A stretch of DNA of 64,000 bases, taken from positions 192,001 through 256,000 of the forward strand of contig CBDUPA010000007.1 in assembly GCA_965368975.1 (NCBI GenBank). Reading direction: 5' to 3'. The stretch's first letter is position 1, and each line of letters opens with the position of its first letter. The DNA is from an uncultured bacterium (GTDB lineage: Bacteria > Acidobacteriota > Thermoanaerobaculia > Multivoradales > JAHZIX01). Shown here one piece after another: positions 46,853-52,163 of this stretch. A program made the translations under genes and the position numbers. The notes under the pieces are model-generated. The model worked only from the letters and a program-made list of their open reading frames with translations, ran no database searches and was not told the DNA's origin.

Positions 46853-48397
46853 ATGCAAAAGGCTACTCTGATCGGCACCCTGACGCTCCTGCCGTCACGT
46901 GATGGTGCCGAATTGACGCAGCTGCCGCCGCAGCTGGACTGGTTGGAAGTGCGTGCCGACCGAGTCGGCGAGCCGGACGTCTCCATGCTGCGGCGTCACT
47001 TCGCGGGCAAGCTGGTCTACACCCTACGCAGCCGTGCCGAGGGCGGTGGTTTCGCGGGTGACGCCGAGCAGCGCGCACGTCACCTTCGCACCGCGGCGCA
47101 AGAGTACGACTATGTCGACCTGGAAGCTCAGCGCGACCTGGCTCCTGAGGTGCTGGAGGCGGTGCCGGCGCAGAAGCGTCTCCTCTCCTGGCACGGCCCA
47201 CCGTCGACCCTGGCCGAGCTGACCGCTCGCTTCGAACGGATGGCGGCCACCGAGGCGGCTTGGTACAAGCTGATTCCCGAGGCGCGCCGTCCCGGTGACG
47301 AGTTGGCGCCTCTGCTGCTGCTCCACGCCCTGGGGCGCCGCGACGTCGTCTCCTTTGCCAGCGGCGAGCACGGAACCTGGACCCGCCTGCTAGCGCCGCG
47401 CTTGGGAGGGCCGCTGGTCTATGCCGCGATCCAGACGGACGCCATCCAGGGTGAGCCGGGGGCGCCCGGGCAACTTGAATTGCAGCGCCTGGTGAACGAC
47501 TACGGCTTGCCGGATCTGCCGCCGGTCTCGGCTTTGTGCGGGATTGTCGGTGACCCGGTGCGCCACTCTCTGTCGCCGCGTCTGCACAACGCCGCATACC
47601 GGGCTCTGGACCTGCCCTTTCTTTACCTGCCCTTCGGTACCGATTCCTTTGCCGACTTCTGGCTCGGTGTGGTCGAGAACGACAACCTGAGCGCCATCGG
47701 CTACCCGTTGCGCGGCCTGAGTGTCACGGCGCCCTACAAGGACATCGCGCTGGCGATCTCGGGGGCCTCCAGTCCGTTGGCCGAGCGCATCGGTGCTGCC
47801 AACACGCTGGTGCTGCACGAAGGCGTCTGGGAGGCCGAGTCCACCGACCCGGCCGGAGTCGTCGAGCCTCTGCGTGCACGTGGCGTCGAGCTGCAGGGGC
47901 GACGCGCGGCCGTCGTTGGCTGTGGTGGTGCTGGTCGCTCGGCTGCCATCGGGCTGGCGCTCGCCGGTGTCCGAGTGACGCTGAGCAACAGGAGTCGGCG
48001 ACGCGGCGAAGAGGCTTCCCAGGCTCTCGGCCTGCCCTTCGTGCCGCTCGACGATCTGGCGGTTCGCCTGGCCGAGGACTTCGACATCTTGGTCAATGCC
48101 ACGTCGCTGGGTCGCTCGGACGACGATCCGCTGCCTTTCGACGTCGAAGCCTTGCCCACCGAGCGTGCGCCGATCCTCGTCGACCTGGTCTACCGCCGAC
48201 GTCCAACCCCCCTGGTCGAAGCTTGCCGTCGTCGTGGCCTAGGCATTGTCGACGGTCGAGAGGTCTTGCTCTTCCAGGCGGTCGACCAGTTCCGCTGGAT
48301 GATCGGCCACGACCTGCCTCTGGACATCGCCCGCCAACAACTCGGCTTGCTTGCAGACTCACCAGCTCCACCTGACTCACCAGCTCTACCAGACTGA
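46853..48397 (+). CDS. Bifunctional type I 3-dehydroquinate dehydratase / shikimate dehydrogenase (AroD-AroE fusion)
   Basis: LEVRAD, TLRSRAEGG and APGQ (AroD); HSLSPRLHN, SVTAPYK, ANT, GCGGAG and NATSLG (AroE). Confidence 0.9.
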   Translation: MQKATLIGTLTLLPSRDGAELTQLPPQLDWLEVRADRVGEPDVSMLRRHFAGKLVYTLRSRAEGGGFAGDAEQRARHLRTAAQEYDYVDLEAQRDLAPEVLEAVPAQKRLLSWHGPPSTLAELTARFERMAATEAAWYKLIPEARRPGDELAPLLLLHALGRRDVVSFASGEHGTWTRLLAPRLGGPLVYAAIQTDAIQGEPGAPGQLELQRLVNDYGLPDLPPVSALCGIVGDPVRHSLSPRLHNAAYRALDLPFLYLPFGTDSFADFWLGVVENDNLSAIGYPLRGLSVTAPYKDIALAISGASSPLAERIGAANTLVLHEGVWEAESTDPAGVVEPLRARGVELQGRRAAVVGCGGAGRSAAIGLALAGVRVTLSNRSRRRGEEASQALGLPFVPLDDLAVRLAEDFDILVNATSLGRSDDDPLPFDVEALPTERAPILVDLVYRRRPTPLVEACRRRGLGIVDGREVLLFQAVDQFRWMIGHDLPLDIARQQLGLLADSPAPPDSPALPD

Positions 48398-48452
48398 TGC
48401 CGCGTCAACCCGACTCGTCAGTCTGATTCGTCGAATCGCTACCGGAGACCTC

Positions 48453-49484
48453 GTGCCCCACCGGAAAAAGAAACGCTCGATCCCCCGCTACGCCGCCCGC
48501 GTCCTCGATGCAGGCTTCGATCAGACTAGCTTCGTCGATGAAGTGCGCCAAGGTCTGACCGCCTCTCCCAAAGCTCTGTCACCGAAGTTCCTGTACGACG
48601 AGCTCGGCTCCCAGCTCTTCGACGCGATCTGCCTGCTGCCCGAGTACTATCCCACGCGCACTGAAAGCGTCATCCTCGCTGGCTGCGCCGACGAAATCGT
48701 CTCCTGCCTGCCGGCGCCGCTACGCATCGTCGAGTTGGGTAGTGGTAGCTCGATCAAGACGCGTCACCTGCTGGAGGCGCAGCTGCGGCGTCAAGAGACG
48801 CTGACCTACATCCCTATCGACGTTTCCGAAGCACCCATCGAGCGCAGCTCGCGCGAACTCCTGCACACCTTCAGAGGGCTGTCCGTTCAAGCCTATGTCG
48901 CTGACTACTTCGACGCGCTGGAGCACTTGGCTGTGAACCCTCCGGTCGCCACTGGAGATACCGCGGAGGTGCCACGGACGCTCGCCCTCTTCCTGGGTTC
49001 GACCATCGGTAACATGAACCACGACGAAGGCGTCGAACTACTGCGCGCCGTCCACCGCATCCTGGTTCCCGGCGATGGTCTGCTTCTCGGTGCCGATCTC
49101 AAGAAATCGCTCGACGTCCTCCTTCCCGCCTACAACGACGCCCTAGGCGTTACAGCTGCCTTCAACAAGAACCTGTTAGTCCGCTTCAATCGCGAACTCG
49201 GCGGTCACTTCGACCTCGACTGTTTCCGCCACGAGGCGCGCTGGAACGAAGCTGAGAGCCGCGTCGAGATGCACCTGGTCAGCTGCCGTGCGCACACGGT
49301 GCGCCTGGACGAACTGGATCTCGACATCAATTTTGACGAGGGCGAGAGCATCCATGCCGAGAGCAGCCACAAGTTCGACCTGGCACAGCTCCACGAGTTG
49401 GCCGCCGCGTCGGGTTTTCGGCTCGAACGTTCGTGGTTCGATCCAGATCGTCGATTCAGCGAGAACCTGCTGATCGCGGTCTAG
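48453..49484 (+). CDS. egtD: L-histidine N-alpha-methyltransferase
   Basis: PKFLYDELGSQLFDAICLLPEYYPTRTE, ELGSGS, FLGSTIGN and AYNDALGVTAAFNKNLL motifs. Confidence 0.9.
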   Translation: MPHRKKKRSIPRYAARVLDAGFDQTSFVDEVRQGLTASPKALSPKFLYDELGSQLFDAICLLPEYYPTRTESVILAGCADEIVSCLPAPLRIVELGSGSSIKTRHLLEAQLRRQETLTYIPIDVSEAPIERSSRELLHTFRGLSVQAYVADYFDALEHLAVNPPVATGDTAEVPRTLALFLGSTIGNMNHDEGVELLRAVHRILVPGDGLLLGADLKKSLDVLLPAYNDALGVTAAFNKNLLVRFNRELGGHFDLDCFRHEARWNEAESRVEMHLVSCRAHTVRLDELDLDINFDEGESIHAESSHKFDLAQLHELAAASGFRLERSWFDPDRRFSENLLIAV

Positions 49485-49518: not shown

Positions 49519-49532
49519 TCCGCTTCCTGTGT

Positions 49533-49611
49533 GCCGAGGTAGCTCAGTTATGGTTAGAGCGCCTGACTGTGGATCAGGAGGTCGGCGGTTCAAACCCGCC
49601 CCTCGGTACCA
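49533..49611 (+). tRNA. tRNA-His (GUG), CCA encoded; probable integration site
   Basis: Acceptor GCCGAGG/CCTCGGT, D arm GCTC..GAGC, anticodon arm CCTGA-CTGTGGA-TCAGG, T arm GGCGG-TTCAAAC-CCGCC, 3' ACCA. Confidence 0.95.
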
Positions 49612-49773: not shown

Positions 49774-51189
49774 ATGGCATATCGGTCCCGGCACAGACAG
49801 AAGCTCACGCAAGCCCTGGTGAAGAAGGTCCGGAAGGAGCAGCTCCAAGCTTGCGAGGATGCAGCAGGGCGGCGCCTGCCGGATCGGTACATATGGGATT
49901 CCGAATCGCCGCTCGGATTGCGGCTCCACGGCACCGGCGGCGCGAGCTGGGTCCTGAAGCCCTACGCAGTGCAGATGGCCGGTCGCCGCGAGCCGCGGCG
50001 GCACACCTTCGGCCTGGTCTCTGACGTGACGCTGGAAGATGCACAGGACCGGGCGCGGGATCTGTGGGGGAGATACCTGGACGGCGAGGACCCGGTGGGG
50101 GAGATTCAGCAGCGCAAGCTTCTGGCTCGGCAGGGCCGAGCTAGCGACCCGACTGTGGGAGACCTTGCAGAGCGCTACATGAAGGAGGTTGCCGCCAGCA
50201 ACAAGCCCGCTACACGGCGAGAGAAGCAGAGAGGCTGGGATCAGGTCGTAAGGCTGATCGGCGAGCGGCAGGTAGCCAAGGTGGACGCTGAGGACATCGA
50301 GTTCGTGTTGCGCTCCATTGGTGACGGAAAGCCCGTCTGGGCGAACCGCGTTCGAAGCCTCCTGTCGCACGCCTTCAACGTTTGCTCGCGCTGGCGCACA
50401 GTAGAGGGAGAGAGATGGCGAGAACTCAACGCAAACCCGGTTCTAGAGACCGATCCGAACCGTGAGAGAGGTAAGGGTCGCACCTACTCAGATGTCGAAC
50501 TGAGGGCGATCTGGACAGCCTTGGGTCGGCTTGAGGGGCAAGACGAGATTGATTGGGTGCTGGCCATTCTGATCCGGATCTTGATCTACACCGGAGCTCG
50601 GCCGGGCGAACCCGCCAGCGCGCGCTGGTCGAACTGGGATCCGACCAAGCAGCTCATCTGGCTCGAGGAGTCGAAAGCGGATCGCGGCGTAGCCCTGGGT
50701 CGGCGGATCTACCTTCCGACACAGGTACTGGAGTGGGTGCCGTACCTCGGTGCGGCACAGAGCGAGTTCATGTTCCCGCGCCGCAAGCTGAATGCCTCCT
50801 GGAGACAGGAGCGCCAGAAGGATGCCAGCGTCACGAAGACGGCCTGGCGGAAGACATGGCAGAAGGTTGCCGAGGAAGCCGGCCTGGTCGAGACTGCGGG
50901 TGTCGCGCCGCAGCTGCGTCACCTGCGCAACACCTGGATCTCCATGGCTCAACAGGCGGGCATCAAGCAGGCTGAGGCGGGATGGATGGCCGGGCATCGG
51001 CCCAGGGGTATGACGGCCCACTACACGGCGCAGCCGGACGAGTACTGGCTTGAGCAAGCAGAGATCGCCGGCGACTTCATCCGGAAGGCGATTGGCGCTC
51101 AGCCCTTGTCGGCGTCGTCCTCGGGCTCTGGAAGGGCTGCGGTGATCACCTTCAAGCCGGGAATCACCCGGCCGTTGTCCGGGATCTGA
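49774..51189 (+). CDS. int: Tyrosine recombinase / phage integrase
   Basis: Arm-binding N-terminus (KLTQALV...WDSESPLGLR); catalytic R (YTGARPGE), K (SKAD), RHLRNT, GH and Y (AHYT). Confidence 0.9.
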   Translation: MAYRSRHRQKLTQALVKKVRKEQLQACEDAAGRRLPDRYIWDSESPLGLRLHGTGGASWVLKPYAVQMAGRREPRRHTFGLVSDVTLEDAQDRARDLWGRYLDGEDPVGEIQQRKLLARQGRASDPTVGDLAERYMKEVAASNKPATRREKQRGWDQVVRLIGERQVAKVDAEDIEFVLRSIGDGKPVWANRVRSLLSHAFNVCSRWRTVEGERWRELNANPVLETDPNRERGKGRTYSDVELRAIWTALGRLEGQDEIDWVLAILIRILIYTGARPGEPASARWSNWDPTKQLIWLEESKADRGVALGRRIYLPTQVLEWVPYLGAAQSEFMFPRRKLNASWRQERQKDASVTKTAWRKTWQKVAEEAGLVETAGVAPQLRHLRNTWISMAQQAGIKQAEAGWMAGHRPRGMTAHYTAQPDEYWLEQAEIAGDFIRKAIGAQPLSASSSGSGRAAVITFKPGITRPLSGI

Positions 51190-51572
51190 TAGACGACGAT
51201 CGGGTCCGGCTCTTCCTTGGCGGCTTCCTCGAGGTAGTCCTTGGGTCGCCGCAGCTCGGCCAGCCTCAGTAGGCCAGAACTCTGCACCATGGCGTGATAG
51301 CCGTCGTTCGGGTTTTGGTCGAATTGCGCGGCGTAGGTCGGGTCCATCATCCTCAGAGCGTGCTCTGCGTCCTCTTCGAGCGGGAAAGAGGACTCCTGGT
51401 AGGCATCGATGTACATGGCCCGGAAAGCGGCGTTCTCGCGCCGCCAGTTGCAGGGCGTAGCCTTGCAGGGCATCTCGGGATCCAGCACGATCTGGCGCAG
51501 GGTCTCTCCAGCAGCTATTCGATCACAGATCTTTCTTCCCAGTGTCTTGTTGTAGGAGCTGCTGCGCGCCAT
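51099..51572 (-). CDS. Terminase small subunit-like protein (Sf6/P22-type N-terminal HTH)
   Basis: SSYNKTLGRKICDRIAAGETLRQIVLDPEMP...W....AAFRAMY..A resembles the YxxExxxxICxxIAxGESLRxIC...MP TerS pattern. Confidence 0.65.
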   Translation of the reverse strand: MARSSSYNKTLGRKICDRIAAGETLRQIVLDPEMPCKATPCNWRRENAAFRAMYIDAYQESSFPLEEDAEHALRMMDPTYAAQFDQNPNDGYHAMVQSSGLLRLAELRRPKDYLEEAAKEEPDPIVVYQIPDNGRVIPGLKVITAALPEPEDDADKG

Positions 51573-51843
51573 AGTCAATCCGGCTGAAAAATTCATCCGG
51601 ATCGACACCGATGCGGATGAGTATCTCTATCGCCGTGACCAGGGTCAGAGAGCTGTACCCCTGGAGCTGGTGATAGAGCGTCGACGGCGCCATAGACAGC
51701 TGGCTCGCAAGGGAACTGACGGTTTGCCCTTGGCGCTTGACCTCCTCGCGCAGTAGGCGCCCCAGCGTCTCGGCGGCTGCTCGCGCCATGTTCGCAGGCT
51801 CCGCCATTTGGTCGAGAGTATCAGATTTGGATGTTTCATCCAT
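51523..51843 (-). CDS. XRE-family HTH regulator
   Basis: GQTVSSLASQLSMAPSTLYHQLQG...IGVDPDEFF. Confidence 0.8.
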   Translation of the reverse strand: MDETSKSDTLDQMAEPANMARAAAETLGRLLREEVKRQGQTVSSLASQLSMAPSTLYHQLQGYSSLTLVTAIEILIRIGVDPDEFFSRIDYGAQQLLQQDTGKKDL

Positions 51844-52163
51844 TAGGTCGACATCTTGAGCTTGCCGGCTCTAACTAGAGCGATGATCTTCTGCTCCTGA
51901 CGCCAGTCGCCATAGAGCGCCAGGAATTGGGAGAGGCTCCCGGCGAGAACATGAGCGACTGCGATCAGCGTTTCTACCCGAAGCTCCTTTCTTCCACGGG
52001 CTTCTCGGTATATGGCTTGCTCGTTGTGGCCGGTGGCTTCAGCTATTTTTCGGAAGCTCATCCGCTTCTCTTTCGCAAGCAATCTTATGTACTCGGCCAT
52101 GCCCCTGGCTTCCTCTTGGGCCATCTCGGCGACCTCGGGGGCTTGCATTGTTTCGTCACTCAT
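51843..52163 (-). CDS. XRE-family HTH regulator (CI-like)
   Basis: KRMSFRKIAEATGHNEQAIYREARGRKELRVETLIAVA; GGAGG RBS. Confidence 0.8.
   Translation of the reverse strand: MSDETMQAPEVAEMAQEEARGMAEYIRLLAKEKRMSFRKIAEATGHNEQAIYREARGRKELRVETLIAVAHVLAGSLSQFLALYGDWRQEQKIIALVRAGKLKMST

Follow-up and report, generated by a model that had tools for sequence, protein, structure and literature searches.

Textbooks describe a guanosine at position -1 (G-1) as a nearly universal hallmark of histidine tRNA. In the canonical system of Escherichia coli and Thermus thermophilus, G-1 is encoded and pairs with C73, and histidyl-tRNA synthetase (HisRS) has a glutamine in motif 2 and a Gly-Gly pocket (Tian 2015, PMC4357726). 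The closest described departure is a tRNA-His/HisRS pair that lacks G-1, known from the RRCH Alphaproteobacteria, for example Caulobacter crescentus and Sinorhizobium meliloti (PMC3064791, PMC3937112). The Caulobacter-type HisRS reads the anticodon together with U72/A73, and G-1 is dispensable (Yuan 2011, PMC3064791). The same paper describes a fixed 9-nt D-loop with U20a in alphaproteobacterial tRNA-His, and shortening the D-loop of the Caulobacter tRNA had only a small effect (Yuan 2011, PMC3064791). On the enzyme side, a change from Gln to Gly in the motif-2 loop is an RRCH mark that covaries with tRNA-His (Amrine 2014, PMC3937112), and the Gly72'-Gly73' pocket for G-1 in Thermus is replaced by two aspartates in Caulobacter HisRS (Tian 2015, PMC4357726).

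Two further cases are relevant. Protists without Thg1 (Acanthamoeba, Trypanosoma) have a G-1-independent HisRS (PMC9976931), and CPR bacteria have archaeal-type TyrRS and TrpRS identities (PMC5370408). For bacteria, a 2023 identity review names only Alphaproteobacteria as using the G-1-less pair (PMC9976931), PMC3937112 likewise treats it as alphaproteobacterial among bacteria, and PMC5389517 adds alphaproteobacterial phages and one alphaproteobacterium to the set. We found no report of a bacterial G-1-less pair outside Alphaproteobacteria (Acidobacteria, Planctomycetes or other phyla) in the literature covered, which takes in few subscription journals.

Here we describe such a pair in an uncultured bacterium. 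The window, meaning the whole stretch of 64,000 nucleotides that was analysed, lies on contig C7 of the host assembly (G000: 7.13 Mb, 65.4% G+C, 59 contigs, 99.32% complete, 0.09% contaminated). The gene at issue is described by two features:

49533..49611, forward strand: tRNA-His(GUG), found by ARAGORN and Rfam RF00005, with G1:U72, A73, an encoded CCA and an 11-nt D-loop
49532, forward strand: position -1, read from the sequence as T, so that no G-1 is encoded

Positions 49532-49611 read t (position -1) followed by GCCGAGG TA GCTC AGTTATGGTTA GAGC G CCTGA CTGTGGA TCAGG AGGTC GGCGG TTCAAAC CCGCC CCTCGGT A CCA. ARAGORN calls tRNA-His(gtg) at 49533-49611, and the Rfam tRNA model RF00005 matches 49533-49608 (68.8 bits, E 1.3e-14) with a standard 7-bp acceptor stem. 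In the acceptor end, G1:U72 is followed by C2-G71 and C3-G70, and A73 by the encoded CCA. An earlier note, made from the letters of this DNA, had pointed to T at -1, G1:U72 and A73; sequence, ARAGORN and Rfam agree on all of these. We ruled out reading the first G of the gene as G-1, because the 3' end would become U73-ACCA and CCA would fall out of register. The D-loop, at 11 nt, departs from the 9-nt form with U20a.

Whole-genome ARAGORN gives 48 tRNAs, of which the window copy is the only tRNA-His, and the canonical C72/C73 tRNA-His pattern has 0 matches in G000. An end with G1:U72 and A73 or G73 was found in 19 of 19 tRNA-His genes (30 loci from the host genome and 40 relatives, host gene included). 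Since the gene is the only tRNA-His in its genome and relatives have the same end, this end is no chance oddity. ARAGORN also reports in G000 a tRNA-SeC, a 97-nt tRNA-Pro(tgg) and, at G000:C9:166453-166549, a 'tRNA-???' with a four-base anticodon (caca).

The tRNA-His gene is also the site of an integrated element, and its surroundings are as follows:

48351..49484, forward strand: EgtD-like histidine-specific methyltransferase, the upstream neighbour on the host side (Pfam PF10017, E 1e-103)
49562..49611, forward strand: att core, tRNA positions 30-79, 50/50 identical to G000:C25:78220-78269 (reverse strand) by blastn against the genome
49612-64000 of the window and on to the end of C7: probable integrated element with an integrase gene, at least 41 kb long, abutting the tRNA-His 3' end
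49774..51189, forward strand: tyrosine integrase at the tRNA 3' end (Pfam Phage_integrase, Arm-DNA-bind_3, Phage_int_M)
51523..52163, reverse strand: two small Cro/C1-like HTH genes (Pfam HTH_31 and HTH_26, E ~7e-4, below the curated cut-offs)

Downstream of tRNA-His come the tyrosine integrase, the two HTH genes and a DUF5131 gene. The 50-nt repeat is the only other copy of any of the tRNA-His sequence that blastn finds in the genome. [quoted passage not shown] On C25, 1.4 kb separate the second att copy from the contig end, and hisS, the HisRS gene, follows 4.3 kb downstream of that copy. From this arrangement of the contig ends, C7 and C25 probably join across an element of at least 41 kb, and the layout would then be tRNA-His, element, attR, two opposite-strand genes and hisS. 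The histidine theme of the EgtD-like gene beside tRNA-His may be a coincidence.

The host belongs to the Acidobacteriota and is no alphaproteobacterium, because both its GuaB and its HisRS relatives are acidobacterial. GuaB served as an independent housekeeping marker. Among its best 120 relatives (76-81% identical), 10 have an organism name, in all 10 cases 'Thermoanaerobaculia bacterium', and NCBI taxonomy places Thermoanaerobaculia in Acidobacteriota. For HisRS, the named genome records that contain relatives 66-81% identical to the host enzyme bear the titles Thermoanaerobaculia, Holophagales or Acidobacteriota, with the exception of one 'bacterium' and one Phycisphaerae. This bears out the guess of an acidobacterial host, more exactly one of the class Thermoanaerobaculia. 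The proposal of an alternative pair had been staked on two things, a host outside Alphaproteobacteria and the lack of a working canonical tRNA-His and HisRS, and the genome agrees with it on both.

A TIGR00442 search gives one HisRS above the cut-off in the genome (G000:C25:72380-73921, reverse strand, 367.7 bits), with the remaining matches below it; no canonical HisRS was found by this search of the 99.32%-complete genome. The E. coli-like HisRS of canonical relatives in the host's order shares just 25-28% identity with the host enzyme. The host HisRS was also compared with PLSDB, a collection that takes in large secondary replicons of Rhodobacterales and Rhizobiales; hisS genes from these two orders are its best matches there, 38-44% identical over 90-99% of the length, C-terminus included. 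Among structures, 3net, 6nhi and human cytoplasmic HisRS are closest (E 1e-60 to 1e-69). The HisRS structures of E. coli, Thermus and S. aureus match only at E 1e-25 to 1e-27 with partial coverage, and the T. brucei and T. cruzi structures match at E 2e-47 and 4e-46, weaker than Nostoc-type or human HisRS. A search for the Thg1 family, PF04446, picked up the control genome, Methanosarcina, and gave nothing in G000 at E <= 0.001. G000 does have a bacterial type A RNase P RNA (277.7 bits).

We aligned 45 HisRS sequences. At the E. coli Gln118 site in the motif-2 loop, all 35 members of the G-1-less-type clade have G or D, and all 10 others have Q (E. coli, three canonical acidobacterial enzymes, Firmicutes, Bacteroidota, Archaea, Streptomyces and two further acidobacterial enzymes). 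The host has Asp here, not the RRCH residue Gly. A C-terminal extension of ~30-45 residues occurs in this alignment only in the acidobacterial/alphaproteobacterial G-1-less-type group. The turn that probably holds the G-1 pocket, D-R-N-G in E. coli, is D-D-D-(D/E) in alphaproteobacterial HisRS and P-E-K-E-E in the host, with the register of the turn relative to Thermus Gly72'/Gly73' set by residue numbers only. Canonical relatives in the order keep G-1, C72/C73, the Gln and the glycine turn. The host enzyme also differs from alphaproteobacterial HisRS in having Asp-Lys in the loop where they have Gly-Pro, and in lacking both the 'GKFLP' segment and an insertion before motif 3. Because of the motif-2 Asp and these two absences, the details of recognition may differ.

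To place the host among its relatives we used a sample of 201 genomes of its order (G000 and the unpublished G144 included), the genomes compared being MAGs or other assemblies. For the order counts, tRNA-His was identified with IUPAC patterns requiring an exact T-loop motif and an encoded CCA; these replaced a tRNA BLAST, which gave tRNA-Phe or tRNA-Thr at 10 of the 30 returned relatives' loci. The derived pattern, U72-R73-CCA, was found in 72 of 201 genomes and the canonical pattern, C72-C73-CCA, in 114; one genome (G026) has both and 16 have neither. HisRS of the host's own type was detected in 80 of 201 genomes at E <= 1e-20, and in 77 after removal of G028, G080 and G069, whose matches were weak partial ones to canonical enzymes. 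Every genome with the derived tRNA-His has own-type HisRS (72/72), and own-type HisRS is absent from 113 of the 114 canonical-tRNA genomes, G026 being the exception. Five genomes have own-type HisRS and neither tRNA pattern (G044, G053, G074, G081 and G160; 79-94% complete).

The derived tRNA is unevenly distributed over families. It is common in f1 (the host's own; 5/5), f3 (8/8), f6 (21/24), f7 (28/33) and f11 (6/10), and rare or missing in f2 (1/8), f10 (1/10), f4 (1/34), f8 (0/33) and f9 (0/33). Some genera are split: g59 has three derived genomes (G136, G169, G189) and two canonical ones (G121, G181), g51 has one (G104) and two (G099, G114), and g26 has one (G060) and three (G033, G042, G085). 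A HisRS family search likewise gives only the derived enzyme in G104 and only the canonical one in G099. In genus g21, G026 has both states and G053 only fragments of a derived hisS. G026 (89% complete, 850 contigs) carries a derived tRNA-hisS cassette, a third-kind, Gln-bearing HisRS and a canonical tRNA-His on contigs C62, C158 and C195; the two systems may truly coexist in it, or else the bin is mixed.

The sequences of these genes allow the identity elements to be compared. Among 59 unique tRNA-His genes of the U72 type, position -1 is T in 30, G in 19, C in 8 and A in 2; it is G in all six canonical genes. The -1 base is therefore not conserved among U72-type genes, and 19 of 59 with G is about the base-composition expectation, though with G in these 19 some lineages could keep a G-1:A73 mismatch. 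Of the same 59 genes, for which U72 was the selection criterion, 58 have G at N1; at N73, 50 have A and 9 have G. Their D-loops range from 7 to 11 nt (9 nt in 35, 7 nt in 13, other lengths in 11). The loose tRNA-His pattern also matched, in many genomes of the order among the rows listed, a tRNA-like 3' end, ...GTGGGGGTTCGAGTCCCCCCTTTCGCACCA, that is strongly conserved and follows a long arm; this element may belong to a tRNA with a long arm or to the tRNA-like part of tmRNA.

Gene order records where the canonical tRNA used to be. In canonical relatives, tRNA-His (G-1, C73) lies within a Pro(tgg)-Arg(tct)-His-Arg(ccg) operon. The host has the same operon with the His slot empty:

G000:C23:81338-81708, reverse strand: tRNA operon Pro(tgg)-Arg(tct)-Arg(ccg), with a 33-nt spacer between the two Arg genes

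We searched 121 genomes of the order for this operon. Among the matches listed, all 47 relatives with an unbroken Arg-Arg alignment have derived HisRS, and in canonical genomes the alignment ends at the end of Arg(tct); another 132 matches lie beyond those listed. All 12 derived genomes inspected have no tRNA in the His slot (spacers of 32-253 nt), while canonical G099 has tRNA-His there. The canonical tRNA-His has thus been lost from its old operon slot in derived genomes; no clear relic of it was seen in the Arg-Arg spacers of these 12.

The derived tRNA-His often sits next to its presumed partner. It is directly upstream of hisS on the same strand at 37 of 40 named-genome loci and 17 of 30 order-sample loci (the two sets overlap). 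In the host's own family the two genes are not adjacent, and in three alphaproteobacterial records with both they are 83 kb to 1.8 Mb apart. Two loci have tandem G-1-less tRNA-His copies upstream of hisS, ~150 nt apart in G239:C101 (L148) and ~840 nt apart in G100:C6. Replacement in place at hisS is not supported in the one pair of congeners compared: the G104 cassette and the canonical hisS locus of G099 share no neighbours within ~1.5 kb.

The pair extends beyond the order. In a phylum sample of 401 genomes, full-length own-type HisRS, aligned to the C-terminus at 47-69% identity, was found in 13 genomes outside the order. Five of them belong to f14, in a second order of the class, and the remaining eight (G361, G316, G371, G573, G562, G481, G203, G465) to other classes. 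In the nine of these 13 that were checked, tRNA-His has G1:U72/A73 in all nine and adjoins hisS in eight. A further ~70 genomes have the third kind of HisRS, which is 37-46% identical, ends near query residue 480 and keeps the Gln; the one such genome checked (G246) has a canonical G-1/C73 tRNA. Acidobacteriota thus hold three kinds of HisRS: E. coli-like, Bacteroidota/Clostridia-like with Gln, and G-1-less.

A second phylum also has carriers. The record titled Phycisphaerae (L041/G585:C143) contains a tRNA-hisS cassette whose HisRS is 66% identical to the host's and nested among acidobacterial enzymes; either the cassette seems to have crossed between phyla recently, or the contig is misplaced. 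In a sample of 151 genomes from the phylum of G585, which shares no genomes with the acidobacterial samples, 11 encode full-length own-type HisRS, with identities of 66% in G585 and 44-48% in the other ten. All ten of the latter lack the Gln and have the extension. The tRNA-His of all 11 ends in U72-A73 with CCA not encoded, while two 'type-x' controls (G607, G665) have tRNA-His ending in C72-C73. In G597 and G673, tRNA-His lies just upstream of hisS. Tracked this way, tRNA type and enzyme type strictly co-occur in two phyla. In a library of representatives clustered at 50% identity, the matches listed include 141 proteins with 400 residues or more, and 31 of these have a non-Gln loop and the extension; among the named members of ten such clusters are Planctomycetota MAGs, Candidatus Uabimicrobium, a Phycisphaerales MAG and Candidatus Lernaella stagnicola.

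We built three quick maximum-likelihood trees (LG+C20+F+G4, SH-aLRT support only), rooted on the Gln-bearing enzymes. G-1-less-type HisRS form one clade in every tree, with SH-aLRT 97 (33 rows), 99 (45 rows) and 100 (48 rows; 12 rows were left out of this tree), and the host enzyme groups with those of Rhizobiales and Rhodobacterales. Alphaproteobacteria are sampled by five sequences from two orders; in the 48-row tree these are monophyletic (99) and nested, joined by an acidobacterial f6 subtype (85), then by Lernaella (97), inside groups from the second phylum and Acidobacteriota. An AU test rejects holding the 35 non-alphaproteobacterial members together (delta log-likelihood 62.8, p = 0.0007), for a group named after the tree had been seen. 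tRNA comparisons rely on short sequences and so carry little weight. One acidobacterial f6 tRNA-His is 90.5% identical to that of Methylobacterium, and the host tRNA-His has a mean identity of 74.6% to three alphaproteobacterial genes and 68.2% to six canonical ones (five from the host's order, one from another class).

We conclude, with a probability of roughly 85%, that the host's only tRNA-His is a working tRNA that follows G-1-less identity rules and is charged by the only HisRS of the genome. By analogy with Caulobacter, an ordinary bacterial RNase P would make its usual cut between -1 and +1, since the acceptor helix is not lengthened by a G-1:C73 pair, and the mature tRNA would start at G1. 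The host HisRS would read the anticodon and U72/A73 with no need of G-1. Again as in Caulobacter, the derived pair would be orthogonal to the canonical pair, and such orthogonality would explain how a linked tRNA-hisS unit could enter a genome and later replace the resident pair.

Other explanations of the gene fare poorly. G-1 could be added after transcription by a Thg1-like or other enzyme, leaving a system that is functionally canonical or eukaryote-like with G-1 opposite A73, and A73 is indeed the eukaryotic discriminator opposite which Thg1 adds G-1. The earlier note had offered Thg1-like addition as an alternative, which lost ground with the lack of a PF04446 match in a 99.3%-complete genome when the Methanosarcina control was positive; the host HisRS, moreover, is without the Gln and, apparently, the glycine-turn signature tied to G-1 binding, and we regard such addition as very unlikely. 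The note's main proposal, an alternative HisRS/tRNA pair acquired by transfer or convergence, stands as to the pair, and of its two origins shared descent or transfer is preferred, because the enzymes form one clade with shared signatures. For convergence, an acidobacterial lineage would have lost G-1 alone and reshaped its own HisRS, unrelated to the alphaproteobacterial system. The loop of the host subfamily, D-K rather than G-P, and the absence of the alphaproteobacterial insertion are what one would expect of this, but all G-1-less-type enzymes stand in one clade apart from Gln-bearing HisRS (SH-aLRT 97-100) and have the C-terminal extension in common, and a reshaped resident enzyme sits badly with canonical HisRS of the same order only 25-28% identical to it. 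Convergence is thus extremely improbable. Least probable of all is an assembly or binning artefact, with the tRNA and hisS contigs foreign or the tRNA copy unused. The assembly is in 59 contigs, and the relative that holds both systems, G026 with its 850 contigs, could be a mixed bin; contamination of G000, however, is 0.09%, the tRNA and hisS lie on contigs of 281 kb and 80 kb, the genome has no other tRNA-His or HisRS, the same state recurs in 5/5 family members and 72/201 genomes of the order, and the old tRNA operon with its empty His slot is on a third contig.

How the pair came to its present distribution is a separate matter. We lean towards the view that the G-1-less system is no alphaproteobacterial invention, and that a self-sufficient, orthogonal cassette of two genes, tRNA-His immediately upstream of hisS, has moved among at least four phyla (Acidobacteriota, the Planctomycetota-labelled phylum, Lernaellota and Pseudomonadota), displacing the canonical system repeatedly and vacating its slot in the old tRNA operon, with RRCH as one late recipient lineage. 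A competing account, which we consider unlikely though plausible, is that the pair is old and vertical within Acidobacteriota and that it is patchy because canonical pairs later took its place again, not because the cassette was imported many times. Own-type HisRS with 47-81% identity is indeed shared by several families, a second order and further classes, and family patterns are mostly uniform (f1 5/5, f3 8/8, f8 0/33, f9 0/33). Against vertical descent, genera g51, g59 and g26 are split and g21 includes a bin with both; the two enzyme subtypes within family f6 share just 43-48% identity, and one is the sister of alphaproteobacterial HisRS; and a genome from another phylum (L041/G585) carries a HisRS nested among acidobacterial ones.

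Judged from genome sequences, the G-1-less rule set appears to be spread much wider than the literature states. New here are the census across the order, the vacant slot in the tRNA operon, the genera with both states, a second acidobacterial subtype beside alphaproteobacterial HisRS, and the AU test. If the pair is widespread in Acidobacteriota and beyond and travels as a linked unit, it can mark a clade only when backed by a phylogeny of the enzyme, the question of who donated alphaproteobacterial HisRS can be put to the test, and nature offers many orthogonal HisRS/tRNA-His pairs. Close genomes that differ only in the pair used would, if truly so, be natural experiments on swapping an essential tRNA identity rule.

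Compared with known systems, the host shares with the canonical one the anticodon, the class IIa family (TIGR00442) and the encoded CCA, but G-1, C72/C73, the Gln and, apparently, the glycine turn are all missing. Like the protists, it has a tRNA-His without G-1, no Thg1 and a non-canonical HisRS; the protist HisRS is eukaryotic, however, and was compared with the host enzyme by structure-match scores only. The CPR TyrRS/TrpRS case is similar in that a synthetase and matching tRNA identity elements occur outside the group of first description, but it concerns other amino acids and another donor domain, and here the tRNA and enzyme genes are often physically linked. The RRCH pair is the closest: the host tRNA-His has no conserved G at -1 and has G1:U72, A73 and G37; the host HisRS belongs to the same clade, lacks the motif-2 Gln and has the C-terminal extension and an acidic turn at the putative G-1 pocket; and no canonical pair is kept. 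The differences from RRCH are the phylum of the host, a D-loop not fixed at 9 nt, G73 in 9 of 59 unique genes, and the position of the tRNA directly upstream of hisS in many non-alphaproteobacterial genomes.
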